Positions 30,557 through 50,916 of a stretch of DNA of 64,000 nucleotides are shown piece by piece. The notes beneath the pieces were generated by a model. The model was not told the origin of the DNA. It searched no databases and saw only the letters and a list, made by a program, of their open reading frames with translations. The stretch is from Patescibacteria group bacterium (lineage in GTDB: Bacteria; Patescibacteriota; Patescibacteriia; UBA1558; UBA10009), in NCBI GenBank assembly GCA_041662565.1, contig JBAZSE010000003.1:108636-172635 (forward strand), in the 5' to 3' direction. The position numbers and the translations under genes are program-made. How positions within the stretch are numbered: position 1 is the stretch's first letter; each line of letters opens with the position of its first letter.

Positions 30557-30677
30557 CATTAGACGATCCCCGAATACAATGTTTATTGATTAGTATAATA
30601 TTACAAAAAGACCTTATCGTCAAGATAATTTCTTGTTTTTTGAATTTAATGTTATAATATATCAATCATCAACATCT

Positions 30678-32369: not shown

Positions 32370-32395
32370 AAAGATTGCACGGATTGCGCTATCTC

Positions 32396-33982: not shown

Positions 33983-34028
33983 AGCTGATGAATTTTAGCA
34001 AAAATGGACAAAAATGGCAAATAAAAAA

Positions 34029-34148: not shown

Positions 34149-34153
34149 TTTTT

Positions 34154-34684
34154 TTATTTTTTTATCACATTTTCCACCGCGGCCCATTGGCTATCCACGC
34201 CCTTAGGCGTTAAAATAACCGCCTCATCCCCTTCTTCTCCCTTAAAATACGTAATACTAGCTAAAATTACCTTAAAAACCTTATCATCGCATAACACGCG
34301 GTAATCACCGGATTCATCTTTAATCACTTTACCCACCAACCGCTCCCTATCAACCGGCCCGATCTGCTTGTAAGTAAAATTACCAGCTTCATCGATTATC
34401 AGTTTTAAAATATCGCCCTCAACCAACTTTGATTTGGAAATATAATTGGCCGGAACCGAATATTGCTTACCATCCGGACCAATCATCTTTTGCCCGTCAA
34501 ACACGCCTTCTATCACCCGTGATTCATCGGTTTTAACCATTTCGGCCACCGTCGCGGCTTTGCTTAAATAATCCAAGCCCTGGCCTAAATTTAAACTGCC
34601 CCCGTTTAATAAAATTTTACATTTTTGGATTTGAATTTCAATATTTTCCAAAATTTGTTTTAATTCTTCAATATTATTTTCCAT
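34154..34684 (-). CDS. Hypothetical protein (N-terminal coiled coil)
   Basis: 176-aa ORF. No motif recognised. Confidence 0.4.
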   Translation of the reverse strand: MENNIEELKQILENIEIQIQKCKILLNGGSLNLGQGLDYLSKAATVAEMVKTDESRVIEGVFDGQKMIGPDGKQYSVPANYISKSKLVEGDILKLIIDEAGNFTYKQIGPVDRERLVGKVIKDESGDYRVLCDDKVFKVILASITYFKGEEGDEAVILTPKGVDSQWAAVENVIKK

Positions 34685-34792: not shown

Positions 34793-35317
34793 TCAATACT
34801 GGTAAAGGTAAATCGGCTGAGAATGATTGCTTAGCCGTAAAACTTGCGCCGGCTCTTTATGCGGCAACTTAAAAGCGTACGAAACCAAGCGGGCCCCCGG
34901 TTTTAATTCTTTTTCCAATTTCGGTTCCAATTTATTCATTACTTCCGGCAAACCAAAACAATAAATTACATCCGCATCTTTTAAATCTTCAAAAAAATAA
35001 TTTTTACACAAAACGCGCAACCGCGATCTATTCGAACTGATAAAAAAATTTAATTTAGCCAACCAATAAGGCAATATGGAAATTTCATAACCAATTAATT
35101 GCCGAGCTTGGCTTAAGCTGGCTGCACGTTTAAGCCACCGGCCATCGCCGCAACCCAAATCATAAACAATTTCTCCAGGCTTAATTTTAGCCAAAGTAAT
35201 TGAAGCCAAGGTGGTTTTTTTAAAAGTCGGCACCCAGGGCGCGCCTAAAAAACCGGCCCTAATCATAGAGCCGATAACAATAATAAAAATGATGGTAAAA
35301 ATTAACGGGAGAATCAT
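34793..35317 (-). CDS. Membrane-anchored class I SAM-dependent methyltransferase
   Basis: N-terminal TM helix followed by VYDLGCGDGRWL (motif I, GxGxG). Confidence 0.65.
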   Translation of the reverse strand: MILPLIFTIIFIIVIGSMIRAGFLGAPWVPTFKKTTLASITLAKIKPGEIVYDLGCGDGRWLKRAASLSQARQLIGYEISILPYWLAKLNFFISSNRSRLRVLCKNYFFEDLKDADVIYCFGLPEVMNKLEPKLEKELKPGARLVSYAFKLPHKEPAQVLRLSNHSQPIYLYQY

Positions 35318-37888
35318 TTATTTACTGACCAATCGCATTCTGGCTAAAATTTCTGCTTCTACGGTTGCCCTATCGCGACCATATTTAAGGCGCGAAAGCT
35401 GTTTAACTTTTTCTACCATTGCTTTATCACCAGGCAACGGGGCAAACGGGGCAAAATTAAAAGCCCGAGCGTTTTGGCTATCAACCAACAGCTTAACGTA
35501 GGCATTAAAACGGGGAATATTGATTAAATCGTATTCGTTAAACACCGGCGCAAACTGCTTGGCCACCAATTCCGCATCATCAGGCCCGATACGAAAAGAG
35601 ACCATGGTGCCCACATTGCCAAAAACCGAATCTCTAATGGAAGTATCATTGCCTTTTTTTACCAATTGGCCGATGTACTGATGGGCAATAGTTAAACACA
35701 GTTTGTATTTTCTGGCTTCGGATAAAATAATGGCAATGGAATCCGTGATAAAATTCTGGAATTCATCAATATACAGATAAAAATTGGTTCGTTCGTTTTC
35801 CGGCACATCCACGCGCGAGAGCGCCGACATTAACAATTTGCCTACTACAACCATACCCAGTAAATTAGCGCTTAAATCACCAATTTTGCCTTTAGCCAGT
35901 TTAATAAGTAAAACTTTACGGCCATCCATAACTTCCCTAAAATTAAACGAAGATTTCTGTTGGGAAATAATTGGCCTAAGTAAATCCGAAGAAACAAAAG
36001 GCGTCAATTTGCTCGTTATGTAAGGCACCATATTGGCGAGTGCTGCTTCACCGCCGGCTTTTTCGGCTTCTTTTTCCCAAAAATCCTTAACCACCGGGTT
36101 AACACATTTGGATAATTTATATTTTCTAAAATTGGCATCGGCCAAAACCTTGGGCACTTCCAACAAAGTTGAACCGGATTCGGTATCTTCCATCATTAAC
36201 AGCATGGCGTTGCGCATATACTGTTCAAACATTGGGCCGCCAGTGGCTTTTAAATCATACAGTTTGTCAAAAATATTTATCATCTCGTTGATGACAAAAG
36301 TTTTTTGTTCCGGGTTGGTAAATTCCAACATATTCAAGGCAATCGGCCGCTCAATATCCGAAGGATCGAACAAAATAACATCATCAGCCCGCTCTGGCGG
36401 AATATGTTCTATAACAGCATCAACCAAATCGCCGTGCGGATCAATTACGCAAACGCCCTCGCCGTTTTTAATATCCTGAATTATCAGGTTGGCTTGAAGT
36501 ACGGATTTACCCGTACCGGATTTACCAATGATATACATGTGGCGCTGGCGATCATCGGTTTTAATGCGCACCGGAGTTTTAACTCCGCGATAAGTGTTTT
36601 CACCCAATAAAATACCTTCGGTTCCCATATTTAAAGGCGGTGCAGCTTTGCGGGCTTCTAGCCAATAAATATTCGGAGTTTCGGAAGTGGGTAGAGGTAA
36701 GTGCCATAAGCTGGCCATTTCTTCGGCATTTAAAATAACATTGTATTTGCGGATAAAAAAACGATGAATAAAATCGGAAACCAAGGTATTGATTCTGACA
36801 AATTTGGCTTTTTTAAAACCATTGCCGTATTCATAAACATTAAATTGGGAAAAACCATTTAAAATATTGGCCAAATAACTATTGGCTAAATCTTTGGTAG
36901 CCGCCGAAACAACCACTCTGATGTTAACATCCATGCCGGCTTTGCTGGTTTTTTCTTCAATACCTTTAACCGTTTCGCTTTCCATGGGCGATAAGCGATG
37001 CGCTGATTCGCTAGCGGTCAAATCATTTTTCTTTTTGGAAATAGAAATAAAAAACTTAAACACTCCACCGATAAAGGCAAAAAGCTTATCAAAAATATTG
37101 CCAAAGCCGGCTTTTCTTAAGGCCCCGGTTAATGTTTTGCCCTGTTGCATTTCGCGAGCCACGGTTACGCCCCGCCGATGCCATCTTTTATGCGAAGACC
37201 TGGCAACAAATTGAATAGCCGCTTCCCCACCGCCGGAAATATTTGCCAAAGCATTGGTTAAAGAATTAAGCGGATCGCTTTCCATTTTTTTGTAGGTTTT
37301 AATCGGAAAAATAAAATCCCTACCAAATCTTAAATATGCTCCGGTAATTACACCTTGGGGCGAAAAAATATTATAATCCTCCACTTCTTCCACTAAAGCA
37401 TAAGGCCAAGCCGAATGGATTTGCTGGGCCAAGGTTTCCTGCAAATAATCGGGTACGCTTAAATAAAAATAAATCTTGCCTTTGGATAATACAATTTCTG
37501 CCGAAAAATGATCTGTTCGGCCAAAAAGCCAATGTAATGGCCCCCGCTGGGCGCGCAGGCCGCCCAAAACCGAAAATAAATTTTCGGCCACGCCGATTTC
37601 TTGTTGCAGAGTTTGCGGAGTTTCTTCTTTATCCACTGCACCTTTGGGCTTAAATTTTTCTTTGGGCAATGAAACGATTAATATTTTTTGTGAAAGCCCT
37701 GCCGGCAAACGATTATGCCTTTCTAAAAACTTCCTGACAATCAATAAGCCAATCCAAATAATCAAAACAATACCTACGGCAATTAATAAATTTGCCAGCC
37801 AGGGATTAATTACAAAAAAATTAACTTGAGGGTTCGGCCCCAAACCGGAATCAATACTAAATTCAATAGCCAATAAATTTACCAGCAT
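35318..37888 (-). CDS. Membrane-anchored P-loop ATPase, VirD4/TraG-like coupling-protein or DUF87/AAA_10 family
   Basis: Two N-terminal TM helices. Walker A IIGKSGTGKSVL followed by VIDPHGD. Walker B LYIDEFQNF. 856 aa. Confidence 0.5.
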   Translation of the reverse strand: MLVNLLAIEFSIDSGLGPNPQVNFFVINPWLANLLIAVGIVLIIWIGLLIVRKFLERHNRLPAGLSQKILIVSLPKEKFKPKGAVDKEETPQTLQQEIGVAENLFSVLGGLRAQRGPLHWLFGRTDHFSAEIVLSKGKIYFYLSVPDYLQETLAQQIHSAWPYALVEEVEDYNIFSPQGVITGAYLRFGRDFIFPIKTYKKMESDPLNSLTNALANISGGGEAAIQFVARSSHKRWHRRGVTVAREMQQGKTLTGALRKAGFGNIFDKLFAFIGGVFKFFISISKKKNDLTASESAHRLSPMESETVKGIEEKTSKAGMDVNIRVVVSAATKDLANSYLANILNGFSQFNVYEYGNGFKKAKFVRINTLVSDFIHRFFIRKYNVILNAEEMASLWHLPLPTSETPNIYWLEARKAAPPLNMGTEGILLGENTYRGVKTPVRIKTDDRQRHMYIIGKSGTGKSVLQANLIIQDIKNGEGVCVIDPHGDLVDAVIEHIPPERADDVILFDPSDIERPIALNMLEFTNPEQKTFVINEMINIFDKLYDLKATGGPMFEQYMRNAMLLMMEDTESGSTLLEVPKVLADANFRKYKLSKCVNPVVKDFWEKEAEKAGGEAALANMVPYITSKLTPFVSSDLLRPIISQQKSSFNFREVMDGRKVLLIKLAKGKIGDLSANLLGMVVVGKLLMSALSRVDVPENERTNFYLYIDEFQNFITDSIAIILSEARKYKLCLTIAHQYIGQLVKKGNDTSIRDSVFGNVGTMVSFRIGPDDAELVAKQFAPVFNEYDLINIPRFNAYVKLLVDSQNARAFNFAPFAPLPGDKAMVEKVKQLSRLKYGRDRATVEAEILARMRLVSK

Positions 37889-37890
37889 GA

Positions 37891-38421
37891 TTATAATTTA
37901 TCCTTATCCATTTTCTTTTTAAAAGCCAAAATCCGATCGGCTTTAATTTTGGCTTCTTGTTCCAAAAAAAACTTATTTAAGCCCGGAATAATTTTAAGCC
38001 AATCCAAGATAAGGCGGAAAATCTCTTTAACTTTAACCTTGGCTGATTTAAGAAGAAGCGCTATCTTGGAGGCAGTTTCTTCTCCAACTTCTCTGAATTG
38101 CAATTGTTTTTCCGGAGTAAGTTTTAAATATTCTTGTTCCAACCCTTCGGCTAAAATGCCTTCTACCTGATAAAAAACCGGTGTTTTTACGGCGGGTGTA
38201 ATATCGTTAACTGATGGCAAGCTTTGAATAGCCGGATTGGTAAATTCGGATTTTTCCTGAACTTCGGTTGGCTTTTCTAACTGATTTGCCGGTAATTCCA
38301 CCGCCTGTTCCACAGTTTTTTCTACCTCAACTGTTTTTTTGCTTTCTGCTTGGCGATTAGGCAGATCTTTAAGTCCGGCTAAAAAACTTTCAATTTTTTT
38401 ATTAATTTGTTCCGGTTGCAT
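37891..38421 (-). CDS. Hypothetical acidic protein
   Basis: 176-aa ORF immediately upstream of, and co-directional with, the ATPase gene. Confidence 0.35.
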   Translation of the reverse strand: MQPEQINKKIESFLAGLKDLPNRQAESKKTVEVEKTVEQAVELPANQLEKPTEVQEKSEFTNPAIQSLPSVNDITPAVKTPVFYQVEGILAEGLEQEYLKLTPEKQLQFREVGEETASKIALLLKSAKVKVKEIFRLILDWLKIIPGLNKFFLEQEAKIKADRILAFKKKMDKDKL

Positions 38422-38591
38422 AGATTATATTATACCATAAAATTGAAAAAACAAAAAGATTCAATGGCAATGTTTTTACAAATGGCGGTTTTTAAAGCAG
38501 TCGCCGGGAATATTATAGATTTAACGTCGACGATACTCCTAACGGTTATATTAAGCAAAATGGTGATTATAATCATCATCATTAGATAAAA

Positions 38592-38640
38592 AAACTCCGC
38601 ACTACTTTATTATAAGATTATGCGGAGAATGAGTTATTAA
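38592..38640 (-). terminator. Intrinsic terminator (minus strand)
   Basis: Minus strand reads tctccgca-N19-tgcggag followed by TTTTTTTA. Confidence 0.5.
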
Positions 38641-38643
38641 AAA

Positions 38644-39462
38644 TCAAGGTCTTGATTCAAACCTTCGTGCGGTTATAGCAAGTGCTTCATACTGCTTCCC
38701 ACCCCAAAGGTTTTTCCAGATTCTCAATCCTTCTTTGTCGAAGAAGCCGACATAGACAAAATTTCCATTTGAATCTACTGAACTGGTTCCTATGGAAAAA
38801 GAGGAAAGCAGATAAATTCCTCTAACAGCACGGTTATAATAATAACTAAAGTTATTACAGCTTTTCGAGATAGCATTTTAATCCCTCTTATAAGTTAGAA
38901 CCTCGAGTTTATTACCTTTGAGAGTAAACTCAATGGTAATATCGGCGATAGGGTTCCAATATTGCGCTATCTTTGGAGGGTCCTCCTTGGTTATTATTCG
39001 ACGACCGAATCTGTCGGTATACCCACTTGTTCTTCTCCCCTCGTATGTTTGTTCTACCTGGCGAACATTCCAGGCGCTATACTTCGCTAGATATCCTTTT
39101 TTGGTTTTGGAAAAAATGATATCTATGAAAAACAGCCCATCTCTTTTAAAAGCGTATTCAAGGAGAGATTTAATTTTCTCGAACCCCTTTGGGTCCTTTT
39201 CATAAGGAGTAATGAGAATAGCTTTAATTATCTCATCAACCTCCTTGGAAAAGGTTTTAAAATTTTCCTGCTGATTTAATTCTTGAGAAAATTTTGGAAA
39301 ACCTTGATTTTCCGCGAAGGCCCTGCCAAGCTCGTAATATTTACCCAGCTCAATTCGCTCCATAATGTCTTGGAGCGGTTCCCCTTTTGAACCAAGCGGA
39401 TTTTGCGCGAATGCTTGGCACGCAATAATGGCTACTGCGATTATTGAGACGAACACTTTCAT
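38644..39462 (-). pseudogene. Secreted hypothetical protein interrupted by an in-frame TAA at 38878-38880. The frame stays open for 77 more codons and ends just before the terminator.
   Basis: The ORF 38878-39462 (signal peptide MKVFVSIIAVAIIACQAFA) stops at TAA. The same frame continues ...NAISKSCNNFSYYYNRAVRGIYLLSSFSIGTSSVDSNGNFVYVGFFDKEGLRIWKNLWGGKQYEALAITARRFESRP* to a TGA at 38644-38646. That is 4 nt upstream of the terminator hairpin at 38592-38640. Confidence 0.4.
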
Positions 39463-39680
39463 GACGAACTCCTTTGTGTTGTGGAAATATTTGATGGTTT
39501 AGTTATGGCCCTAAAATTGCCTAAATATGCCTCTTTAGGCCCATAACTATCATTTTTTGATTGTAATTTACAAAGAACTATTCATTAAGAAAAAATATAA
39601 GCTTTTTAAATAATATTATCAGATGATGACGGCGCAAGTTAAACGGACATCGGGGTCTTGAGTAATTAATTTATTTATTT

Positions 39681-40094
39681 TTACTGGCTGAACACCACAA
39701 TTTCTTGATTCTTGGAAAAATACCTAATGGTGTAAGATAAGCCATCACCGCTCCAATACGATAATCCACTAACCTCACTTAGGTCAATAGATAGATCGCC
39801 CAAGGCCTCAACTAAAGCATTTTGGCTGGCCAACCCATCTGTTTTAACAATAGGATAGCTTTTGCGGGCAACGTAATACTCGGCTAGCTTTTTTTGCAAA
39901 GATTCAACCTCAACTCTGCGATAATCGCCTTCTTTAATAGCTACTGACTTTTCGTGGTCTATATTAGCCATTACACCGGTTGATATTAAACCGATTGTGG
40001 CTAAGATTAGCGGAATTACTACTACAGCAAAACCTTTTTGATTAGTCATAATATTACATTTAAGTAACCCGCCTATTATACTCCTTTTGGGCAT
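39681..40094 (-). CDS. Small membrane-anchored protein with a weak prepilin-like N-terminus
   Basis: Internal start gives MTNQKGFAVVVIPLILATIGLISTGV. The KGF + hydrophobic helix resembles a class III signal but lacks Glu+5. Confidence 0.3.
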   Translation of the reverse strand: MPKRSIIGGLLKCNIMTNQKGFAVVVIPLILATIGLISTGVMANIDHEKSVAIKEGDYRRVEVESLQKKLAEYYVARKSYPIVKTDGLASQNALVEALGDLSIDLSEVSGLSYWSGDGLSYTIRYFSKNQEIVVFSQ

Positions 40095-40117
40095 TTTGTC
40101 AAGCTATAATTTGCCAA

Positions 40118-40148
40118 CAAAAAAAGACGGATAATCCGTCTTTTTTTA
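40118..40148 (-). terminator. Bidirectional intrinsic terminator after the giant gene
   Basis: AAAAAAA-gacgg-ATAAT-ccgtc-TTTTTTT. 7-bp stem with an A-tract and a T-tract on either side. Confidence 0.65.
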
Positions 40149-40168
40149 ATATGTATTTAATCTTTTTA

Positions 40169-43100
40169 TTATGCCGCCAGAGCCAAAGTTGACGTTTCTT
40201 TGTTTAAAGGTAAAACATCTATATTTTTGGCGAAATCCTGGTTATACTTAAAGTAACTGTCTAAATCTATTTCCTTGGTAACGTAACCTAGCCGCAACGA
40301 ACCATCTGTTTCCAATTTTGGTTGAACTTGATTGCCTTGGCTATCAAAAAACTTTACATTTTGTGCCAGCCATTTATCATAAAGCTTAGAGCCATCCGAC
40401 TGGCGATCAGTGATGTGATTTTTATAAGCAGCTTTAAATTCTTCCACAATTTGCCTGCCCTGATATTTATGGCCTTCTATTTCCAATGTTAACTGATGCA
40501 AGGGCACCGGCTCTTGACCGCCTTCTGGCATTAAAGAAGCGGTTGAGGCATGGAACATGATAAATTGCTTATCAGGTGTAACGGTTAAAATAGCACCGTG
40601 GCCTTCAGGGCCATAAGTGGCCGCTCCGCCGGATTCCATGTTAATTAAATATTCTCCCGGCTCTAGATTTTCTTTAACTGTTTGCCAGGAAGCGTTATTA
40701 TATTTTAATTGCTGTTCACGCAAGAAAACCGAAAACTTTAATTCTTCCGGTTTGCCGGCATGGACGCTTAAAAACCGATTATAATCATCTAAAACAGGAT
40801 ACTCTCCCTTATTTTCCTTAGCCGCTTGCCTAACCAAAGTCATGCAATCAAATCCATCCTTGCCAACACTGTACGGCTTACCCACTTCATCCATCAAACT
40901 ATTGGCAATCTTATAACTTTCCGGCAAAATTGCGCTAATTGGTCCACCGGCCATAATTGATTCAATCTTTGCCCTATTAAAAACCTCATGTCCGAATTTT
41001 TTTTCTAAACTGTTTAATTCTTTTAAAATTTCCGCTTTAACTGCTTCGGCCTGGGCCTTATAACCGCCTTTAATTAAAGATTGATAAACATCAATATCTT
41101 GCATTAAATCTTTACCTTGTTCACGAGCATCGGTAATACTACCAATTAATTTATCGCTCTTGCCAGCTAAAATGCTCCGATAGCCTTCCTTTAAAATTTC
41201 ATCTCCGGTAATATTTCCGGTTCGCTGATGCAATATTTCCACTCCGATAACGCCCGAGCCCCGATTGCCATATCTAAAAGTTACCTTGGAAGAACCTGGT
41301 AAATCTGGATTGTGGGAAGTAAAAACAAAATCCCGACCTTCATTGCTGATTTGTATGCCCGCAACCTCATTATTAACATCATTGGGCTTTAATTCCTGCA
41401 ACGGGGCTTGAGCCGCTAATTTTGGGTCAGCACCCGATGTAGGCGCAACCTCTGCCTCATTAACACTGGTTGATCCGGTAACAGGAGCATTGGCGGGATT
41501 GGCGATTATCTCTTGAATTGGCGGTTTTTCGCCACGCAAATAATAAGGGATGTTTTCAAGCTCTTGATTAGTCAAAGTTCCGATATGCACTTCTTGGCCA
41601 TTTTGATCAAGAATGGAAAAATTATTTTGTTTTAGATTAAGTTTAATTACAAAATTATTAAAGTTATTTTTATCTAAAATCATTCCTCTTTCCCAAGAAA
41701 CCCATTTTTTTACCTTAAAAACAAGTTCGCTAGATAAACCACGAGTAAAATAAACTTCTTTAACATCAAAGTTTTTACCATACCATGATTTTTCAGATTC
41801 AAAACTTTCACCAAACAACAACTCGGTTGCCTTGGCCATTTGATCATCAGACATACTTGATAAACCATCTCTGTACTGCGCTAAGCCGGCAATAACAACA
41901 TCTTTTTCAAAACTTAAATTTTTGGTGTAAGAAGTAGCTTCAAAAGCCCTGGCAAGGCCTTCATTAATTTTAGTGCCAAATTCATAATTCAAACTATTGG
42001 CAATGGGCATAAATTCCGCCACCTGCGCGCGCTCGGCTTGAATATGGTAATCTTTAAACAAGGCCTCGGTCATGCGGTTTAAATTTTGGCTGGCACGGCT
42101 AATGCCACCGGCTAATTCCGCCAATTCCGGCTGTTCAAATTCTTTTGGTAAAGCAATGGTATAATAGGGTTTATTGCCTTTAACCGCTACGCCCACCATA
42201 TCTGCCACGCCATCGTCATTACTATCCTGATAAACCAATTCATCGGCCTTATTAACAAGTTCGCCAACTTTGTTGGCCTGCGCTTGAACTGCCTCAACAA
42301 TCAATTTATTTTGAGCTTCAATACTGCTAGCGTCTACCACTTTTTCTACTGGCGGATTAACCGTGTTTTGGACTGGTAATTCCGGGCTTGCTTTAACATC
42401 CGATGGCACTTCTTTAATCAATGGAAAACCCTTGATATCCCCATGATCCAAACCATCGGGTTTTAAATAAAAAACCTGTTCCGGCTGACCATCGCCGATA
42501 TTATCAACGGTAATTTTTAAATTATTACCTTCTGCCAAAAATTCTATATTATTAACCGTGCCATCAATCACATACTGTTTGCCCCCGGCTTCAATTATAT
42601 TTCCATCTTTAAGAACATAACCCCTCTCAGTCATAAATTGACTGACTTTGGAACTTAAGCTGCTGGCGGTTAAAGGAGTTTCCGGGGAAATAATAATCGT
42701 CGATAGTTCCTCCGGCATATGCTTTAAATCATAACCGACATTGGCAATTTGAAAATCCGTTAACTCAAAACCGTCTTTTTGTATATCAGGAATAAATAAT
42801 TTATTCTGTATGGTATGGAAAAGTACATCGTGAGGTGCGCTGCCCTTAAAAGACAGGCCTACAAAAGTTATCTGATTCGTGCCATCAAAAAATTTAATAT
42901 CAGAAGCGGAAAAATCATTATTCGCAAACAAGTCTCGAGCAAACATAGTTGCCTCGTCTTTACTAAAAGTTTCATGTTGCTTCATGGCCAAAATGCCAAG
43001 CCACAACTCATGTTTATAAGACAAAGATAAGCGCTCGGTTAAAGCAAGAGCTTCTTTAACTGAAAGATATGAGGCATCATTAACTTTTAAAAAGGCCTCG

Positions 43101-46100
43101 GAAGTCAATCGCAATTGCTGTTGATCTTTAGCTGCTTCTAAAATTTCCTTTATCTCCCCCATTGCCCATCCTCGATCCATCATTTTAGTGGCAATATCAA
43201 ATTTTGCCAAAGAATAAACATTTTCCAATTTAAGCAAATCCAGATTTTCCTTACCCAATTTGCCAACAAAATTATCAACCAAGGCAAAATCCGGTTTGGT
43301 TTCAAATAATTGGGTGGTATTACTACCTTGCCCGTAAACTTTGTAAAACTTGGCCGCTTCCAAACGATCGCCCGTTAAATGAGTGGCTAATTGGTTTAAA
43401 TTATCGCTAGTTGTTCGCGCCTGAGAAACAAGCTCTATGGCTTTATCATGGCTTAATTTTTCATCAAATTCTATTGTTTGATAAGCCAAGTTTGATTCAT
43501 CTCTAATTTCTAAATGATCAGGTATATTATCGCTATCAGCATCAATTAAATGCAAAGTATCACCATTGGGCAATTTAACATCCAGCCCATCCCATGGCCC
43601 AATTAAGCCCGTTTCTGTTGACGGAGGGTTAATGTGTTCGGCGGGAGTAACGGGATCGACTTCTGGAGTCACAATTACCCCGCCGGCGGTTCTTATACTT
43701 AACGCTTCATCCAACTTGGCCTTGGATGCGCCGTGTAATTCCTCATGCGCATCCCAATATTCGCGCGCTGCCTTGGCTTCATTGTAATTTAACTGTTCAT
43801 GCAAACCGCCTTCGGCTTTATCCAAATTAAATTCATTTTTAACTTCTTCCGGAATTTCATTTAATTTAAATTCTTTGCTGATTTGATCATAACGACCGGT
43901 TAAGCTTTCACCCGCCTCAACTTTAACTTCAGATGTTTTATATACAATAATTTCGCCCGACTTGGTTTCAATTACTGTATCACCTTCGTGCACCAAATTG
44001 GCATCAAAATCCTTAATTTCGGAACCACCAATGGTAATCACGGTAACTTTGGCATCCGGCGCCATGGCCTTATCCAGGGCTTCGGAAACACTTCCTTTGG
44101 CTGAAACAGTTCCACCGGCCATATAATCCTGATCAGCTGGCAAATGATCTTTAAAAGCCGGGATTTTTTCCAAATCAGCCAGCATATGAAATTTATGAGT
44201 CAATGGAACAGTTGGAGTTATTGCATCTACGGAAGGTTCTATTGGATCTTTTTCAGTTACTACTGACGAATCAATAACTTCCGTAATTCTTGAACCGGCC
44301 GGTAAATCAGGAGGTAATTCTAAATCCGCTTGATCTATTGATGGTAACTCAAGATTAGTTGTATCAGTAGATGGTAATTCCAAATCAACTTGATTTGTAT
44401 CAGGTAAAGCAACAGCGTTATGCGCAACAGATGTATCTGCAGGCAAAGATAGGTCTTTTAAGGGTTCATCAGTTAATTCGCTAGCAGTAGAATCAACCAT
44501 CGCCGCATCACCTTCGGCTACGGTTTGATTAATACTAGCCACATCAGCAGAAATGTCCTGATGAAATAGCCAATCCCTAACAACCGCACCGGCGCTGGCA
44601 AAGGCCGCGCCATAAAAAGCGCCCCATAACATTTTCTTGGTAACATACCTATCCCTAGCCTTATAAATTTTACCCTCGCGATAACTTAAAAATTTTTCCA
44701 ATCTTTTGGTAATTTCATTTTCAGAAGCAAAGCCTCCGGCTAAAGTTTCTCCGAAATTCAAAACATCAATCAATTCCTGCTGATTTATTAACCTCTCTCC
44801 GGCTTCACCAAAATTAACCAAGCCCTTATCCAATTTATCCTTAGTATATTCTAAACGTGCTCGCAAAGAATCTAAAACTTTTTGTATTTTTTGCTGAATT
44901 TCCGGATCATCATCCGAGAAAAAATCATCAATCTCATTAAATTCAATAATCAATTTATCCAATTTGGCAGTTAAACCCTCGGCCTTAACAAAATTTTTAT
45001 CAGCCGATAAAAGCTTGGCACGCTCTGTTTCCAATTTATCTCTTTCTTGCTCTAATTCTTTTCTTACACCAAATGGCATTATGTACTTATACACTTTGCC
45101 ATCCCTAATAGTAAAATCCTTATTTGTTTCTAAACTTCTTGTTAGCTCGCCTTTTAGCTTGGCTAAATCAATTTTTTCATTATCTGACAATTTATCTGAT
45201 TGCTGTTTTTTATTTAAGAAGATTATTTTGCTTATAATTTCATTTTGCTGTTGCAAATTATCTTTAATATTGCCAACTTCCGTTACCTCTCCCTGCCTAT
45301 AAATTGATGAATCCAAAGATCTTATTTTGGTTAATAACTCACTGGCTTTTTTATCATTAGTACTTTGGGCCAAACCTCTTCTGGTTTCAACATCTTTTTC
45401 TTCTAAACCCGCTTGAGCCCTTTTTCTGCCCAACCAGCCACCCATAACCGCAGCAACCACAGGCGCGCCAATCACTCCCCAGGCACCTATTGCAGCTGTT
45501 CTGGCAATAAAACCGGCAGCAAAATAACCGCCTCTTTCTTGAACCGTGCTGATTAAAGCCGAGCGCCAAATTTTATCCGAACCAATCCGGCCAAGCTCCT
45601 TTTCCACTTCCGGATTGGTATTTAAAAATTGCTGAAGCCGTAATTTATTTTCAATTTGAACTAATTCCAAAAGAGCTTCACTGTCAGCATGAGCGCGTTT
45701 AAATGATTCATCATTAACCAAAAATCGCTTGTAAACTGCGTAATTATCTCTTGCTTCACTGTACTGTTTCTGTTGTTTTTTTGTGGCAGTTGGTAAAGAC
45801 CATTCATACGGCAGACGACTTAACTCGTTAATGGCTTTATTAAACCCAATTAAAACATTTTGCCCATCTTTATCAATACCTTCCCAAGCACTTAGATAGC
45901 CCACTTCCAAACGGCCTTTTTCATCTTGGGCAATTTCCAATTGCGCGGTTTGCTTGACCAAATCCGCTAAAAGTTTTTTATGTTGTTCAAAATCGGCAGA
46001 AAATACTTTTTTAGCGCCGGCTGTTTCGGTTTTAGCAACGTAATACTGTTTAAATAGATTTTTCCAAAGCTTACCCGCCAAATTACTTTGACCAAGTTCT

Positions 46101-47944
46101 TGCTTATATTCCGCCTTACCCTGATCTTGCGCCCTACCCAACATTATTTGCTTAAAATTTTCCAGCAAAAAGGCCTGCTGTTCTGGCGTTAACTCGGCAA
46201 AACCTTCCACAGAACTAAGTTGTTCGGGTGAAATATTAAATTTGGCAAAATCATTAACTATGAATTGGGCAATTTCTGGAGATAATTTTTTGGGCTCAGA
46301 CGAATCCTGCGCTTTAATCGGTTTTGAAGATTCTGGTAATTTATCCGGAACAGTGGTTTTTACAATTGACTCCATTTGAAGCCGTTTTTTTAATTCTTCA
46401 AGCAAAACTTTTGGTTTGGCCGTATCAATCAGAGCTTCTTTAATGCCATAAGCCCTAAATACATCTTCGTCAGAAAGATTAATACTTGCCGGAATTACAC
46501 CGGCTTCAAAATTCTTCAGCATTTCCTGTGCTCTTGTTTGAATAGCAGAATCAATAACTTTTTCCTTTGGTTTTATAGGTTTAGTGACGGGAATTTCCTC
46601 AACATCAATGACTTCAGAATCTTTAATTTTTGGTTCAGCAGAAACAACCGGCTCATTAGGGTCAATTTCTTTTACTTCGGCTAATTTTCTGGATGGCCTT
46701 TTGTAAAGCCCGCCCCAATCCAAGGACTCTTCCTTATCCTCATTACCTGTTTCAGCCAGTTCTGGTAATTTTTTGGATGATCTATCTAAACTTGCCCAAT
46801 CCAATGGTTTGCCTTCAATATCAACGGTTTCGGACACTTTTGGTAATGCTTCAATATCTTTAGGTGGTGATTCTGGCACAATAGCATCTTGACCTACATC
46901 AGCTAATGGAGTAATCTCTGGTGCTGTCTTTTTTAAGTTTACTTCGGTTTGTGCGCCAACGGGTTTAACTAATTCTTTTTCACGCCTTTTATATAATGAC
47001 CCCGGCGCGGGCCTGGATCCTTTCCTTAATAGCTTTGTATACATACTTTTTTCTAACCTGTACAAATCCCCTTCGCCAAGTGGCGTAAATATACCCGGCC
47101 TAACTTGCTCAAAACCAGTGTGCACCTCCTCCGTTCCTCCCAACCCGTCTGCAAATTGAACTAATACTGCAAGACCAGCCGAGCTAAACCGTTCGGCCTG
47201 AAAAGGCACTAATACTAAATTACCATTATCTCTTTCAAAGCCCACAAACGATCCGTCCGATCTCTTTACAAACTTATATTTACGATATGACATATTGGTT
47301 AATATGGCCTCCATATTAACCATTTCATAGAAATCAGAATCCAACCCTGCCTCTGCTAGCATTTTTTTTAAAGTTCCCCACTTTTTATCGCCAATTCTAG
47401 ACCATTCGTTAACAACATCAACAAGCGTTTTTTCCTTTTGTTCGTCAAAAGTCAATTCACTTTCTATTGAATTTTCTGGTGTTTTAGGAGCTTCCGGAAC
47501 CTTAACCGAATTAATAGGTTCTTTGATCGTTTGATCGGGATCCTTAAAACGATTTTTAAAATCTCTAAGCAAATCTTCCGCTTTACCATTTTGTATCTCT
47601 TCTTCACCAAATTCATAGGCCTTAAATACCGCAACTCCACGAGGAGTTAATTCTCTTTTTGAATTATTCAAACAAACTAATGGAGAATACGCCATTATTG
47701 ATTCCAAATCATTCTTAATAATACTTTTTGCGTCTGCTTGAATTTTAGGATCAATTTCTGGAGATTTTGGTATTTTGGGCGCTTCAACAACTGGCGTAAC
47801 CACTGGTTTTGACTCATTCCTATTCTTCCAAATGGCTTCTTCATCTTCAGTGAGCGGTAATTCATGTGCAATCTTTTTTATAATACTAAAAGGAGTAGGT
47901 TTTTTGAGCTCCCTATTTCCTTCTGATGATTTATCTATATTCAT
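40169..47944 (-). CDS. Giant (2591 aa) membrane protein with a C-terminal NlpC/P60 peptidoglycan-endopeptidase domain
   Basis: Uninterrupted 7.8-kb ORF with no signal peptide. Hydrophobic segments at ~aa 830 (YFAAGFIARTAAIGAWGVIGAPVVAAVMGGWLG) and ~aa 1090 (MLWGAFYGAAFASAGAVV). The C-terminus reads GKPYSVGKDGFDCMTLV...EPGEYLINMESGG...GHGAILTVTPDKQFIMFHASTAS. This is an NlpC/P60 Cys-His core (compare Spr: GIDCSGFV...GDLVLF...HVGIYIGNNQFVHASTS). Confidence 0.7.
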   Translation of the reverse strand: MNIDKSSEGNRELKKPTPFSIIKKIAHELPLTEDEEAIWKNRNESKPVVTPVVEAPKIPKSPEIDPKIQADAKSIIKNDLESIMAYSPLVCLNNSKRELTPRGVAVFKAYEFGEEEIQNGKAEDLLRDFKNRFKDPDQTIKEPINSVKVPEAPKTPENSIESELTFDEQKEKTLVDVVNEWSRIGDKKWGTLKKMLAEAGLDSDFYEMVNMEAILTNMSYRKYKFVKRSDGSFVGFERDNGNLVLVPFQAERFSSAGLAVLVQFADGLGGTEEVHTGFEQVRPGIFTPLGEGDLYRLEKSMYTKLLRKGSRPAPGSLYKRREKELVKPVGAQTEVNLKKTAPEITPLADVGQDAIVPESPPKDIEALPKVSETVDIEGKPLDWASLDRSSKKLPELAETGNEDKEESLDWGGLYKRPSRKLAEVKEIDPNEPVVSAEPKIKDSEVIDVEEIPVTKPIKPKEKVIDSAIQTRAQEMLKNFEAGVIPASINLSDEDVFRAYGIKEALIDTAKPKVLLEELKKRLQMESIVKTTVPDKLPESSKPIKAQDSSEPKKLSPEIAQFIVNDFAKFNISPEQLSSVEGFAELTPEQQAFLLENFKQIMLGRAQDQGKAEYKQELGQSNLAGKLWKNLFKQYYVAKTETAGAKKVFSADFEQHKKLLADLVKQTAQLEIAQDEKGRLEVGYLSAWEGIDKDGQNVLIGFNKAINELSRLPYEWSLPTATKKQQKQYSEARDNYAVYKRFLVNDESFKRAHADSEALLELVQIENKLRLQQFLNTNPEVEKELGRIGSDKIWRSALISTVQERGGYFAAGFIARTAAIGAWGVIGAPVVAAVMGGWLGRKRAQAGLEEKDVETRRGLAQSTNDKKASELLTKIRSLDSSIYRQGEVTEVGNIKDNLQQQNEIISKIIFLNKKQQSDKLSDNEKIDLAKLKGELTRSLETNKDFTIRDGKVYKYIMPFGVRKELEQERDKLETERAKLLSADKNFVKAEGLTAKLDKLIIEFNEIDDFFSDDDPEIQQKIQKVLDSLRARLEYTKDKLDKGLVNFGEAGERLINQQELIDVLNFGETLAGGFASENEITKRLEKFLSYREGKIYKARDRYVTKKMLWGAFYGAAFASAGAVVRDWLFHQDISADVASINQTVAEGDAAMVDSTASELTDEPLKDLSLPADTSVAHNAVALPDTNQVDLELPSTDTTNLELPSIDQADLELPPDLPAGSRITEVIDSSVVTEKDPIEPSVDAITPTVPLTHKFHMLADLEKIPAFKDHLPADQDYMAGGTVSAKGSVSEALDKAMAPDAKVTVITIGGSEIKDFDANLVHEGDTVIETKSGEIIVYKTSEVKVEAGESLTGRYDQISKEFKLNEIPEEVKNEFNLDKAEGGLHEQLNYNEAKAAREYWDAHEELHGASKAKLDEALSIRTAGGVIVTPEVDPVTPAEHINPPSTETGLIGPWDGLDVKLPNGDTLHLIDADSDNIPDHLEIRDESNLAYQTIEFDEKLSHDKAIELVSQARTTSDNLNQLATHLTGDRLEAAKFYKVYGQGSNTTQLFETKPDFALVDNFVGKLGKENLDLLKLENVYSLAKFDIATKMMDRGWAMGEIKEILEAAKDQQQLRLTSEAFLKVNDASYLSVKEALALTERLSLSYKHELWLGILAMKQHETFSKDEATMFARDLFANNDFSASDIKFFDGTNQITFVGLSFKGSAPHDVLFHTIQNKLFIPDIQKDGFELTDFQIANVGYDLKHMPEELSTIIISPETPLTASSLSSKVSQFMTERGYVLKDGNIIEAGGKQYVIDGTVNNIEFLAEGNNLKITVDNIGDGQPEQVFYLKPDGLDHGDIKGFPLIKEVPSDVKASPELPVQNTVNPPVEKVVDASSIEAQNKLIVEAVQAQANKVGELVNKADELVYQDSNDDGVADMVGVAVKGNKPYYTIALPKEFEQPELAELAGGISRASQNLNRMTEALFKDYHIQAERAQVAEFMPIANSLNYEFGTKINEGLARAFEATSYTKNLSFEKDVVIAGLAQYRDGLSSMSDDQMAKATELLFGESFESEKSWYGKNFDVKEVYFTRGLSSELVFKVKKWVSWERGMILDKNNFNNFVIKLNLKQNNFSILDQNGQEVHIGTLTNQELENIPYYLRGEKPPIQEIIANPANAPVTGSTSVNEAEVAPTSGADPKLAAQAPLQELKPNDVNNEVAGIQISNEGRDFVFTSHNPDLPGSSKVTFRYGNRGSGVIGVEILHQRTGNITGDEILKEGYRSILAGKSDKLIGSITDAREQGKDLMQDIDVYQSLIKGGYKAQAEAVKAEILKELNSLEKKFGHEVFNRAKIESIMAGGPISAILPESYKIANSLMDEVGKPYSVGKDGFDCMTLVRQAAKENKGEYPVLDDYNRFLSVHAGKPEELKFSVFLREQQLKYNNASWQTVKENLEPGEYLINMESGGAATYGPEGHGAILTVTPDKQFIMFHASTASLMPEGGQEPVPLHQLTLEIEGHKYQGRQIVEEFKAAYKNHITDRQSDGSKLYDKWLAQNVKFFDSQGNQVQPKLETDGSLRLGYVTKEIDLDSYFKYNQDFAKNIDVLPLNKETSTLALAA

Positions 47945-47994
47945 ATTATATCAAATTATATCAAATAAAAGCGAATTTACTTTAATCTTATCTT

Positions 47995-50748
47995 CTAAAA
48001 TTTAAATTTAATTCCTAATTCACTAATAGATTTTTCAATCTCTTCAAACATTTGATGCGCTAATTCTACTTTTTGACTAAAAACATTACCAGATTGTTCC
48101 AAATCATCTTGGCCTTTTTTAAATTCTTTACCTAATTCTAAGGCCCGTGCCTGCAAGTAATCCACCAATTCATTCAAATCCTTAAATTTATTAAATAGAT
48201 CCGCGGTTTTCTGTTCTTTAGATAAGCCCTTGGTTTGTTCTAACAGCCAAGAATATTGATCATCCAAAAAATTAAACGGTTTGATTATCGTTTCGTTATA
48301 CCATTTTGTAGGATTAAATTTTTCTTGCTCCAGCCCTTTAGACGTGCTAACAAGAGATTCTTGGTCAGGATTTTCGGTTTGTTGCTTTTTAGCCGCCTCA
48401 ACTAAAAGATCTTTTAAATCGTCTTGTGGGATGGTAGGTTCGCCCTTTCCTTTCGTATTACCAAATTTTTCTTGCAAAGCATCAACATCAACTGAAGTTA
48501 ATGGTGTTTTAGGACCTGTTGATGGTTTAATAATTCTTGGTTCACTGGCTTGTTTCGGATCTTCAGCTTCAACAGACTTGCCATCGGGCTGATGTCTTTG
48601 AATTTCCGGATCTGTTACTGGCACTTGAGCTACTTCTTCCGCTTGGTTATCCAGCATCCTTTCTAGCTCTAAAATTTTATTTTGGGCTGGATGAAACACC
48701 TCCTCTATCATTGAGTCAGTCAAATCATTAAAGATTTTTGAATCAAAAACGCCTTGTTTAAGTTGATCTTGATAATGATCTTCAACATGATTTTTAATTA
48801 CTTGTAAACGTTCTGCTAATCCATCATAAAAACTTTGAATTTCACCTATCTTTTCCGGCGGTAAAGATGAAATTAAAGTTTTAAATTTGACCAATGAATC
48901 AGAGACTATTGGAACTATATTCGTTTTAAAATCTTGAACCATTCCTTCTATATCCTCTTGAACTTCTACTGTTGTTGGTAAAACCTGTTCCACCCCAGGA
49001 ATAGCACTTACTTTTGCATCAGCCACTAATGTTTTCTTTTCAGCTATTGGTTCGCTAACCGTTAAAATTTCGGTCGGTTCTGATAGCGGCTTAACCAACT
49101 CACCCCTTAATTGTTCAGCATGGTCTTTGGTTATTGCATCGCTTTGCAATTCCCTATCGATAGAATCACTAATAAGAGCCGCTGAAACTCTTTTTAATAA
49201 TTTTCGTTTTTCTCCTTCTGATTGTTGACTGATTAATTCATCGTGTAGTAATTCATCCGCCTGCTCTTTAGATATTTTACCTTTTTCAAGGAGTTCATTG
49301 ATTTTATCAGTTACCACCGAAGGTTCAGGTTGGACCAAACTAGCATCATTTGGTTTAATGACTTTTTCTTCAATAACAACCCCCAGCTTTGATGGATCAG
49401 TCACCAATGTTTCATCAATTTGTGAAGCAAGTTGGTCTAATCTGCGGTCAGCATCAGCTTGATCCACCACTTGAGCTGGCTTTAGCGCCGCTTCAGCGGG
49501 TTGAATGTTTGCTTTTGGTCCTATTGCTTGATCTATTTCTTCAAATATTGTCCGAGCCCTTGCGTCATCTTCACTAATATTATTTGGTTCGCTAACCGTT
49601 AAAACTTGGTCTTTATTTTTGTTTTGAGGAATTAATACCGGCTCTAAAACAAGTTCATTAGGTGGTTCTGCTATTGATTCTGGTTGTAAAATTTGACTAT
49701 CAATCTGCACAACCGGCTCAACTGTTTTAAACTTTATAGGCGCTTCAGTTTTTTCCTGTAAATAATTCCGCAAATCCTTTAAGAATGTCTCAAAACCGCT
49801 AAGATATTCTCGATCCAACATCTTTTGATCATACTCCTTCTTGAAAATAGCTGCCGAAAGGTTGTTCTTCATTAAATTAAATTTTTCAATCAGCAATTTT
49901 TCGGTATTATTGTTATCATCATTAATAAGTTGATTAATAAATTCTTGAATTTGGATAATAACTGATTTTAGTTCTGGGCTCTGTTTTGCATCTAAAACTT
50001 CAGGTAAACTTTGTTGCAAATCATCTAGTAAATCCTCAAATCTCGAAATTCTAAATTCAGCTAATGTGTCCGGATCCTCGGTCCAAACTTTTTCAAGTTT
50101 ATTATAACTTTCTTGCAAATACTGAAATTCATGAATCTGTTTTTTCTTGGCAGGATTATCATCATGGACCTGTGGAATCAGTAATTGAATTTGATCAATA
50201 ACTGATTTAAGATGGACGCTTGGTTTTTCAGTTTGAACTTCAGCGCCTTTTTCAACCGGCTTGGATTCTTTAATCTGCTTTAGTATTGCTTTACTCTCTT
50301 CATTATAATATTCTTCAAACTTTTGCATTAAATTACGCAAACAGCCGATAAACGATTGAAAGGTTTCGGGGTTTGAAGGATTTTCTACCAACTCTTTGGC
50401 ACGAATGTATATAGCACCATAATCAATATTAAATTCTGACGAAGGTAAAGCATGACCTATACAATCCTTACCGATTTCAAAATTTTTAAATGCCTCGTTA
50501 ACATCATCGTCATTCTGATTTTTTAAAATCGCGTCAATAATCTCATTAACCTCCTGAGTCATTTCATCATGCCAAAACATTCTTTCTTCAAATTGATAAT
50601 CTTTCCAATCATTTCTTATTTCAAATGATTCTTTTCTATTGAATTCTAATAAGTCGGCAAAATCATTAGGAACAGCCACTTGTTCATTTGTATTGGTTGA
50701 ATTAACCTGATCATTTGGTGGGATTTGATCAATTATTGGTTCGGCCAT
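47995..50748 (-). CDS. Large (917 aa) acidic repeat-containing hypothetical protein, probably co-transcribed with the giant gene
   Basis: No TM or signal peptide. Internal repeats (LKSVIDQIQLLIPQVHDD and LKSVIIQIQEFINQLINDD). 50-nt gap to the giant ORF on the same strand. Confidence 0.5.
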   Translation of the reverse strand: MAEPIIDQIPPNDQVNSTNTNEQVAVPNDFADLLEFNRKESFEIRNDWKDYQFEERMFWHDEMTQEVNEIIDAILKNQNDDDVNEAFKNFEIGKDCIGHALPSSEFNIDYGAIYIRAKELVENPSNPETFQSFIGCLRNLMQKFEEYYNEESKAILKQIKESKPVEKGAEVQTEKPSVHLKSVIDQIQLLIPQVHDDNPAKKKQIHEFQYLQESYNKLEKVWTEDPDTLAEFRISRFEDLLDDLQQSLPEVLDAKQSPELKSVIIQIQEFINQLINDDNNNTEKLLIEKFNLMKNNLSAAIFKKEYDQKMLDREYLSGFETFLKDLRNYLQEKTEAPIKFKTVEPVVQIDSQILQPESIAEPPNELVLEPVLIPQNKNKDQVLTVSEPNNISEDDARARTIFEEIDQAIGPKANIQPAEAALKPAQVVDQADADRRLDQLASQIDETLVTDPSKLGVVIEEKVIKPNDASLVQPEPSVVTDKINELLEKGKISKEQADELLHDELISQQSEGEKRKLLKRVSAALISDSIDRELQSDAITKDHAEQLRGELVKPLSEPTEILTVSEPIAEKKTLVADAKVSAIPGVEQVLPTTVEVQEDIEGMVQDFKTNIVPIVSDSLVKFKTLISSLPPEKIGEIQSFYDGLAERLQVIKNHVEDHYQDQLKQGVFDSKIFNDLTDSMIEEVFHPAQNKILELERMLDNQAEEVAQVPVTDPEIQRHQPDGKSVEAEDPKQASEPRIIKPSTGPKTPLTSVDVDALQEKFGNTKGKGEPTIPQDDLKDLLVEAAKKQQTENPDQESLVSTSKGLEQEKFNPTKWYNETIIKPFNFLDDQYSWLLEQTKGLSKEQKTADLFNKFKDLNELVDYLQARALELGKEFKKGQDDLEQSGNVFSQKVELAHQMFEEIEKSISELGIKFKF

Positions 50749-50889
50749 ATATTTATTTAGCTAATTAACTGCCTTTATTTTACTCCACTTTAAGCAACTT
50801 ATCAAACAAAATTTGATATTTATTTAACAAATAAACGTACCATAATAGTAGAATACTGTCAATATTTGTAAAACCATATCTGTGGATAA

Positions 50890-50916
50890 CAAAAAACGGG
50901 GTTAAAGCCCGTTTTA
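50890..50916 (-). terminator. Intrinsic terminator after dnaJ
   Basis: Minus strand reads aaaacgggc-TTTAAC-cccgtttttt followed by gtt. Confidence 0.55.

Follow-up and report, generated by a model that had tools for sequence, protein, structure and literature searches.

A coupling-protein-type ATPase and a giant protein with an NlpC/P60-like tail in a Patescibacteria genome: probably two independent units between dnaJ and dnaX

Introduction

In a survey of 2,918 Patescibacteria genomes, 5,713 VirD4-like homologues were counted, and only 148 of them lay near virB4 (Quinonero-Coronel et al. 2025; PMC12102498). The VirD4-like copy of S. epibionticum is dispensable and its type IV secretion system (T4SS) genes are essential, from which it was concluded that the protein may be exapted (PMC12102498), and the essential T4SS cluster of the same organism was described without recognisable coupling and relaxase proteins (Wang et al. 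2023; PMC10633639). Here, we analyze a stretch of 64 kb from a Patescibacteria genome (contig JBAZSE010000003.1, hereafter the window), in which an ATPase of the coupling-protein type lies between dnaJ and dnaX together with a 2591-aa protein, the giant. Because VirD4-like orphans have been published for Patescibacteria, the ATPase is an already known kind of orphan, and what is new here is incremental: the coupled p176a, p176b, the DUF8128 N-terminal domain, the linkage to dnaX, the phage relatives and a cryptic peptidase family.

An initial annotation of the window had joined seven elements at 34793-50748 into one T4SS-like envelope system, in which a coupling-type ATPase, a pilin-like subunit and a cell-wall hydrolase formed a functional triad. 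The seven open reading frames (ORFs) do exist on the minus strand at these coordinates. However, synteny and transcription signals disagree with the single-system reading, and we therefore consider it likely that this 16-kb stretch consists of two independent units, which became adjacent by lineage-specific accident.

Results

Gene order and transcription signals

Eight minus-strand ORFs occupy the interval between dnaJ and dnaX (Table 1). The proteins p917, p137, p194, p176a and p176b are named after the length of the original ORF. In the direction of transcription, the order is hrcA, grpE, hsp20, a 113-aa ORF, dnaK and dnaJ (56245-50960), followed by p917, the giant, p137, p194, p176a, the 856-aa ATPase, a 174-aa methyltransferase, p176b and dnaX, where the flanking hrcA-grpE-dnaK-dnaJ and dnaX genes were assigned by Pfam. 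These flanks bear out the earlier view that the locus is chromosomal and resident. Read from the promoter-like and terminator-like sites in Table 1, p917 and the giant would form one transcription unit and p137 through the methyltransferase another, in agreement with the synteny.

Table 1. Positions of genes, domains and predicted transcription signals between dnaJ and dnaX, in window coordinates
Feature	Position	Strand	Description
Terminator-like hairpin with T-run	50893..50915	-	After dnaJ; closes the hrcA-grpE-dnaK-dnaJ unit
Promoter-like site TTGATA-17-TAAAAT	50777..50805	-	Ahead of p917; consensus match
p917	47995..50748	-	917 aa; acidic, isoelectric point (pI) 4.6; no transmembrane (TM) helix, no signal peptide; just upstream of the giant
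Giant	40169..47944	-	2591-aa membrane protein by predicted topology; orthologues in L085/L086 (2933 aa) and L081 (2281 aa)
Giant, C-terminal domain	40172..40912	-	~245 aa; NlpC/P60-fold cysteine peptidase (Cys2367, His2449, His2465) with beta-rich subdomain
Strong palindromic intrinsic terminator (A7-GACGGAT-TAT-CCGTC-T7)	40119..40147	.	22 nt past the giant stop codon
Perfect sigma-70 consensus promoter TTGACA-16-TATAAT (12/12)	40075..40102	-	Starts the downstream unit, ahead of p137
p137	39681..40049	-	Revised to 122 aa from ATG 40049 (MTNQKGF); earlier ORF start 40094
p194	38878..39462	-	194-aa orphan; Sec signal peptide, possible lipobox (IIAC)
p176a	37891..38421	-	Conserved small partner of the ATPase
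ATPase	35318..37888	-	856 aa, coupling-protein-like; Pfam, NCBIfam, PDB profile, AlphaFold2 (AF2)/Foldseek, hhalign
Methyltransferase	34793..35317	-	174 aa; N-terminal TM helix and class-I S-adenosylmethionine (SAM)-methyltransferase domain
Strong promoter-like site	34796-34769	-	Before p176b; consensus match
p176b	34154..34684	-	176 aa; between ATPase and dnaX; no known family
dnaX	32396..33982	-	DNA polymerase III tau/gamma (Pfam); conserved downstream neighbour of the ATPase unit

Synteny separates a conserved unit from a variable slot

We sampled 80 species-representative loci (GTDB genomes) around ATPase homologues 47-60% identical to that of the window and searched them with every window protein; upstream sequence of at least 8 kb was available in 53 of the 80. 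p176a was found by tblastn in 61 loci and stands at position -1 in 57 of 75, p176b is present in 45, and dnaX lies downstream of the ATPase on the same strand in 60. Order and strand are shared (p176a, ATPase, in some cases the methyltransferase, p176b, dnaX), and both the ATPase partner and the dnaX position recur in many of these loci, from Komeilibacteria, Falkowbacteria, Magasanikbacteria, Uhrbacteria, Kerfeldbacteria and others. The methyltransferase occurs in seven loci and immediately follows the ATPase in only four of them; as an accessory gene, it takes this position in a subset of lineages. The dnaK/dnaJ genes lie upstream in about 10 loci, and the giant, p917, p137 and p194 accompany the ATPase in none of the 80. 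When the ORFs of these loci were clustered by relative position, the other recurrent neighbours were CorA, CysRS, L27 and SerRS, with no secretion parts, VirB4, VirB6 and relaxase included, among them.

Locus L082, from a close relative whose ATPase is 70% identical, has the exact flanks of the window (two MacB genes, hrcA, grpE, hsp20, the 113-aa ORF, dnaK and dnaJ), and continues after dnaJ with a 116-aa p137 homologue, CorA, p176a, the ATPase, the methyltransferase, p176b and dnaX, without the giant, p917 or p194. In L081 (ATPase 81% identical) and L085/L086, the same slot holds the giants listed in Table 1, in L085/L086 together with a 1005-aa upstream protein. In other lineages, the interval between dnaJ and p176a carries unrelated genes, some of them large. 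We regard this interval as a variable slot, since close relatives differ in its content.

The conserved part of the locus is compact. The stop codon of p176a lies 2 nt ahead of the ATPase start in the window, and the spacing of the two genes is -4 to +18 nt in most loci. In L044 (3694-6723), p176a and the ATPase form a single in-frame ORF of 1010 aa, free of N bases, which may be a natural gene fusion or else result from a sequencing error. The tight spacing and this fused ORF argue for translational coupling and physical partnership of the two proteins. p176a combines a variable, acidic, Pro-rich N-terminal half with a conserved C-terminal helical domain (WLKxIPGVNKFFLEQEAKIK); the initial annotation called this small protein acidic, a description that fits the N-terminal half only, as the overall pI is 7.8. 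In p176b, a coiled coil at the N-terminus precedes a beta-rich C-terminal domain. Neither protein could be placed in a family by the Pfam or PDB searches.

Two further observations concern these partners. When the p176b family profile was searched against the PDB, the best match was DotY (Lpg0294), a subunit of the type IV coupling complex in Legionella, over ~95 residues and at a non-significant E of 0.07. At position -1, p176a is replaced in eight loci (L051, L052, L053, L062, L069, L072, L075 and L078; two labelled Saccharibacteria, two Moranbacteria and the others candidate phyla radiation [CPR]) by an unrelated family of ~140-175 aa with a conserved C-terminus (...VKVARHL.DNY.LD..HD.L...L..KGL.KE.).

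The ATPase is a coupling-protein homologue with a non-canonical N-terminal half

The 856-aa protein had been described as a VirD4/TraG-like membrane ATPase, and our searches uphold this. Pfam matches to DUF87, TrwB_AAD_bind, T4SS-DNA_transf and TraG-D_C cover aa 425-790, the best NCBIfam matches are TraD-type coupling proteins, all far under their cut-offs, and a profile of 20 sequences matched TrwB and DotL only among all PDB sequences. The AF2 model (predicted local distance difference test [pLDDT] 80) has a single N-terminal TM helix at aa 29-58, where canonical type IV coupling proteins (T4CPs) have two. There follow an alpha/beta domain of ~340 aa (aa ~67-400), which precomputed annotations assign to DUF8128, and a VirD4/TrwB-type nucleotide-binding domain (aa 425-850) with an inserted helical domain (helices at aa 526-655 in the model). 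Walker A (GKSGTGKS) begins at aa 455 and Walker B (YLYIDEF) at aa 704, and in the alignment of 20 homologues G455, G458, G460-K461-S462, Y704 and Y706-I707-D708-E709-F710 are invariant.

Structural comparison points to the same family. In Foldseek, the ATPase matched TrwB with a template modelling score (TM-score) of 0.64-0.68 at 17-19% identity, followed by Cag-beta, DotL, DndH-C, HerA and VirB4. With hhalign, F TraD was matched at Prob 71 and E 3.6e-5, and F TraC (VirB4) at Prob 6, with the ATPase domain alone aligned. Pfam gave no FtsK_SpoIIIE match, and FtsK was absent from the PDB sequence matches and from the Foldseek top 50. Given these profile, Foldseek and hhalign results and the AF2 architecture, the protein is a coupling-protein homologue of the VirD4/TrwB type whose N-terminal half is non-canonical. 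We also considered a VirB4-like N-terminal domain and leave it unproven: full-length TrwK/VirB4 ranked first in Foldseek with TM-scores of just 0.24-0.33.

More than 3,000 homologues share 55-80% identity with the ATPase, essentially all of them from CPR bacteria, and across classes the conservation is 47-60% identity. Among phage proteins, a near-full-length match (aa 124-850, E 1e-85) was obtained to the PHROGs family phrog_5156, whose function is unassigned. A tblastn search detected homologues in 42 phages, 41 of Bacillus/Geobacillus/Brevibacillus and one of Microcystis, at 21-25% identity and over up to aa 107-800. The homologue of phage TP-84 has 754 aa and lies in the early region (30542-32806; L091 5785-8049), preceded by the gene of a small membrane protein; RecB-like and single-strand-annealing genes are ~1.4-2.5 kb downstream of it and the replicative helicase ~5 kb downstream. 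In IMG/VR, only 2 distant matches and no close relative of the CPR ATPase were found, and the CPR gene is therefore not viral cargo.

The giant carries a cryptic NlpC/P60-like domain and belongs to a rare family

Neither the whole giant nor any of five pieces of it matched Pfam or NCBIfam at E <= 10, and phmmer found no PDB match for its last 300 aa. Nevertheless, the NlpC/P60 tail that had been called from a motif holds up. An alignment of nine sequences of the C-terminal domain has invariant Cys2367 (DCMTL), His2449 (GHG) and His2465 (HAS), and the AF2 model of the domain (pLDDT 85, predicted template modelling score [pTM] 0.84) has the papain-like alpha+beta fold of NlpC/P60 enzymes (C40). 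We conclude that the tail is a cryptic, divergent NlpC/P60 member. From hydrophobicity and flanking charges (positive-inside rule), the giant is predicted to have aa 1-804 in the cytoplasm, a hydrophobic hairpin at aa 805-839, a coiled region that is again cytoplasmic, and a TM helix (aa 1105-1127) beyond which ~1460 aa lie outside the cell. Self-BLAST gave no internal repeats in the giant or p917. The giant had no match in PHROGs, and this speaks against its being a tape-measure protein or otherwise of phage origin.

The family is small. In a word-indexed search, the full-length giant finds itself alone and its last 310 aa find 2 proteins, and when the last 1200 aa were searched exhaustively with HMMER against 1.84 billion representative proteins, 12 were matched at E <= 0.001, 8 of them below 1e-30. 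In six of these eight, the domain is C-terminal in a protein of 796-2933 aa; the remaining two are a stand-alone protein of 239 aa and a fragment of 253 aa. Immediately before its NlpC/P60-like domain, the L085 orthologue (P0124, 10001-18802, 2933 aa) carries an insertion of ~340 aa in which a YkuD L,D-transpeptidase domain (HGCVRM) lies; the window giant lacks this insertion. The YkuD domain beside NlpC/P60 fits an extracellular, peptidoglycan-directed role.

Family members adjoin the ATPase operon in L081 and L085/L086 only. Elsewhere, they occur in four contexts in which no ATPase of this kind lies within 10 kb: in L087 and in L088, a Band_7 gene and rplT-rpmI-infC flank the family member; in L089, it follows mraZ-rsmH and a penicillin-binding protein (PBP) gene; and in L083/L084, it lies near Dus, CorA, DivIC and FtsEX. 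In these contexts, small companion proteins are encoded upstream of the giant, one of ~109 aa (DUF5663 in two cases) and one of 57-72 aa. The window has neither of them. A hidden Markov model search of all six frames of the window from 37 to 52 kb detected no DUF5663-like companion gene, and jackhmmer searches with p917 and with the N-terminal and middle parts of the giant against all ORFs of the fetched loci gave no link to other large ORFs. As a separate observation, a called gene of 10,379 aa starts ~5 kb downstream of the family member in L087 (GCA_048538235.1, contig of 860 kb; 21464-26504), which is extreme for a CPR genome of <1 Mb.

Smaller proteins of the locus

p917 is acidic, as the initial annotation had it, and fast-evolving: only its last ~100 aa show similarity (30% identity) to the protein of 1005 aa encoded at the corresponding place in L085.

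p137 begins with a hydrophobic anchor and is conserved solely in the close relatives L081, L082 and L085 (48-52% identity), with whose starts the revised ATG 40049 agrees. It had been read as weakly prepilin-like. However, the sequence after its start (QKG/FAVVVIPL, with the slash marking the putative cleavage site; QKG/VVVVLIPL and QKG/IVVVLIPL in the homologues) is no class III prepilin signal, since Glu is lacking at +5, and p137 matched neither a pilin nor an N-methylation profile (Pfam at E <= 10, NCBIfam). The prepilin call being unsupported, the pilin leg of the proposed triad is unsupported as well.

The 194-aa protein p194 was thought to be secreted and possibly disrupted; the signal peptide and lipobox speak for the first part, and the gene is intact. 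No homologue was found in any fetched locus, and around p194 we found no remnants of the relatives' opposite-strand genes or of CorA. The methyltransferase has the membrane helix and SAM-dependent domain that had been annotated, and its best profile is an archaeal protein-lysine N-methyltransferase model (85 bits, below cut-off).

The window and the organism

Proteins identical to those of the window come from a metagenome-assembled genome labelled Patescibacteria group bacterium, on a contig of 809 kb. The nearest named relatives are Candidatus Komeilibacteria, in keeping with the ultra-small CPR/Patescibacteria organism that had been suspected. Only two genes of the window are on the plus strand (27386-28474 and 30633-32369), and since all the others are on the minus strand, the co-orientation of the seven genes is uninformative. 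The remaining window is housekeeping: RNase P RNA, two mreB, mreC, PBP2, greA, frr, recJ, a second clamp-loader subunit, an aminoacyl-tRNA synthetase, an ABC/MacB exporter and others. A Pfam scan of the two plus-strand genes and of all non-nested minus-strand ORFs with 100 aa or more detected no VirB4, VirB6, relaxase, integrase or transposase, so that the missing VirB4, VirB6 and relaxase remarked on earlier are indeed missing from the window.

Some features lie outside the subject of this work. Two MreB paralogues, MreC and a PBP2-type transpeptidase (2682-3695, 7573-8616, 6760-7548 and 4357-6270) make up a complete rod-shape (elongasome) set in an ultra-small bacterium. In L082, pfkB, a TSP3-repeat protein gene and recJ follow within ~3 kb after dnaX, where ~14 kb intervene in the window (18780-32369). 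This second variable island, partly restriction-modification-like, encodes a Na+/H+ exchanger, tRNA-Gln, two unknown proteins, an N4/N6 DNA methylase, Nramp, a thiamine pyrophosphate enzyme, an aldehyde dehydrogenase, a ResIII/SNF2 helicase and a 543-aa unknown protein. The spacer between p176b and dnaX (33983-34153) contains a near-perfect rod hairpin of ~130 nt (minimum free energy -64 kcal/mol, z = -5.9) with a U-run behind it. Similar copies occur in the same spacer of L081 (~13823-14013), and L085 has two, in opposite orientations on either side of dnaX (24686-24786 and 26452-26578). It looks like a repeated palindromic element, similar to repetitive extragenic palindromes or miniature inverted-repeat transposable elements, or else like a conserved terminator; the spacer matched no signal recognition particle RNA and no other Rfam family.

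Discussion

We propose that Unit A (about 40102-32396) is a vertically inherited Patescibacteria housekeeping operon around an orphan coupling-protein-type ATPase. The ATPase would be held in the membrane by its one N-terminal helix, with the DUF8128 and motor domains in the cytoplasm, and by analogy with TrwB it is most likely a hexameric NTP-driven translocase. p176a most likely works with it as an adaptor or regulator, p176b is probably a co-worker too, and the methyltransferase and p137 are clade-restricted additions. The ATPase may pass DNA or protein substrates on to a membrane channel whose genes lie elsewhere, or it may act directly on replicating or incoming DNA. Unit B (50805-40119) would be a separately transcribed, rare and fast-evolving pair of the acidic, cytoplasmic p917 and the giant. 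The giant probably exposes ~1460 aa outside the cell with an NlpC/P60-type cysteine peptidase at the tip, which most likely cuts peptidoglycan stem peptides, either in the wall of a host at the contact site or in the cell's own wall.

Several points weigh against this proposal. The promoter and terminator calls that separate the units are consensus matches, and the topology of the giant is predicted from hydrophobicity alone. Its NlpC/P60 domain goes unrecognised by sequence profiles (Pfam/NCBIfam, E <= 10), and the Foldseek comparison with the PDB was non-significant, with Tse1 as the only match at a probability of 0.66. In three related genomes (the window, L081 and L085), the giant is found in the same slot next to the ATPase operon, and a lineage-specific functional link between the two could exist. 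As for the role of the ATPase, homologues are carried by T4SS-free Bacillus/Geobacillus phages, and the dispensable T4CP homologue of S. epibionticum, beside essential T4SS genes, speaks against a simple T4SS coupling role (PMC12102498).

What the ATPase moves is the question on which our readings part, and we weigh T4SS coupling in trans and stand-alone DNA handling about equally. In the first case, p176a, the ATPase and p176b would be the missing coupling complex of a Patescibacteria T4SS encoded elsewhere, recruiting protein or DNA for export into a host. The features of the T4CP family are present in the ATPase, Patescibacteria T4SS clusters usually have no T4CP of their own, and T4CP genes are commonly far from virB4 (PMC12102498, PMC10633639); DotY as the best PDB match of p176b points the same way, but this match is non-significant. 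Yet the unusual 340-aa N-terminal domain and single TM helix, the very high conservation across classes, a dnaX synteny of the housekeeping kind, the homologues in Firmicute phages without T4SS and the non-essential homologue of S. epibionticum (PMC12102498) are difficult to reconcile with such a role, and we regard it as a tentative possibility.

In the second case, the ATPase unit would be a stand-alone membrane-anchored DNA translocase for replication, segregation, recombination or uptake rather than secretion. The position of dnaX in 60 of the 80 loci would fit such a function, although gene order alone may be what is conserved there. The early-region homologue of TP-84, near RecB-like, single-strand-annealing and replicative helicase genes, the FtsK/HerA superfamily with its structural matches to HerA and DndH, and the dependence of CPR bacteria on imported nucleic acids (PMC10633639) all agree with DNA as the substrate. 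However, no DNA-binding domain was identified in the ATPase, and ftsK is mentioned in transcriptome papers on the Saccharibacterium TM7x; if that is a real gene, the segregation role is already filled there. This role is possible as well, but doubtful on present evidence.

Returning to the two-unit reading, its most far-reaching form would make p176a-ATPase-p176b-dnaX a phylum-wide, T4SS-independent housekeeping translocation machine with a DUF8128 motor shared with Firmicute phages and, separately, the giant a lineage-specific tool for breaching the host wall. We put this forward as a speculation that may well not hold. If it were true, the conserved block might act on DNA that enters or leaves nucleotide-auxotrophic cells.

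The single system of the initial annotation, in which all seven genes would form one expanded, divergent T4SS- or competence-like machine with the ATPase as motor, p137 as pilin and the giant as VirB1-like hydrolase, is now very unlikely. It draws on real features: the T4CP homology of the ATPase, the same arrangement in L081 and L085, and the fact that Gram-positive T4SSs use large multi-domain hydrolases (PMC12102498). The annotation had named two outcomes that would together undo it, an ATPase of the FtsK type and components that are not syntenic in any relative: the ATPase is not of that type, but synteny of the full set extends to two near relatives and no further. All 80 species loci, as well as L082, which keeps the flanks, lack the giant, p917 and p194, the p137 gene is absent from the same 80, and the giant family lives without the ATPase in four contexts. 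No VirB4, VirB6, VirB3, VirB8 or relaxase is present in the window or in 83 ATPase loci, a terminator and a promoter stand between the units, and p137 has no prepilin signature. The single machine is largely refuted by synteny, and the triad of ATPase, pilin and hydrolase is a by-product of gene-dense, single-strand CPR chromosomes, which removes a false lead.

MADS, a methylation-associated anti-phage defence system, is an eight-gene mad cluster. That the ATPase and the methyltransferase are a fragment of such a system is extremely improbable: the PADLOC matches of the ATPase to mad8 (E 7e-11) and of the methyltransferase to mad2 (E 1e-12) are weak (40-45 bits) and at the level of generic domains, the methyltransferase fits the protein-lysine methyltransferase model better and is patchy among the loci, no other mad components were found, and the near-universal, highly conserved ATPase sits in a housekeeping context, unlike patchy defence islands, which led us to reject a defence role.

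On the two-unit reading, the "possibly exapted" orphan T4CP now has a fixed coupled partner and a position upstream of dnaX in many CPR loci, which gives a concrete set of three proteins, and a rare giant family with a profile-invisible NlpC/P60 peptidase is a candidate tool with which epibionts cut the host wall.

How these proteins compare with known systems can be summarized as follows. Like the orphan T4CPs of Patescibacteria (PMC12102498), which number about two copies per genome, the ATPase is VirD4-type, chromosomal, far from virB4 and without a relaxase; what differs is the neighbourhood, which that paper leaves undescribed ('dnaX' occurs 0 times in its text). With TrwB of R388, TraD of F and DotL of Legionella, it shares an N-terminal membrane anchor and a P-loop nucleotide-binding domain into which an all-alpha domain is inserted. 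In contrast to them, it has one TM helix instead of two, an extra cytoplasmic alpha/beta domain of ~340 aa and 17-19% identity to TrwB, no T4SS or relaxase lies nearby, and the gene is highly conserved and vertically inherited, not plasmid-borne. The phage proteins of phrog_5156 (CP-51, TP-84, phage G and SPO1-like phages) share its two-domain architecture over aa ~107-800, at 21-25% identity and with no assigned function.

For the giant, the closest enzymes are the NlpC/P60 peptidases of clan CA, family C40, such as LytE, CwlO, MepS, SagA and the Tn916-like hydrolases. It differs from them in having no Pfam/NCBIfam match, in an extra beta-rich C-terminal subdomain of ~100 aa, in its attachment to a membrane protein of 2.3 kaa and in the tiny size of its family, with 8 strong members (E < 1e-30) among 1.84 billion representatives. 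It also resembles the giants of Vampirococcus (PMC8080830) and Omnitrophota (bioRxiv 10.1101/2023.11.21.568195), which are likewise very large, membrane-associated and lineage-specific proteins of small-genome epibionts or predators, and for which a role in wall degradation or host contact has been proposed. Unlike in those proteins, neither adhesion-type repeats nor known interaction domains could be detected in the window giant, ~1100 aa of it are predicted to be cytoplasmic, and the C-terminal peptidase is the conserved part.

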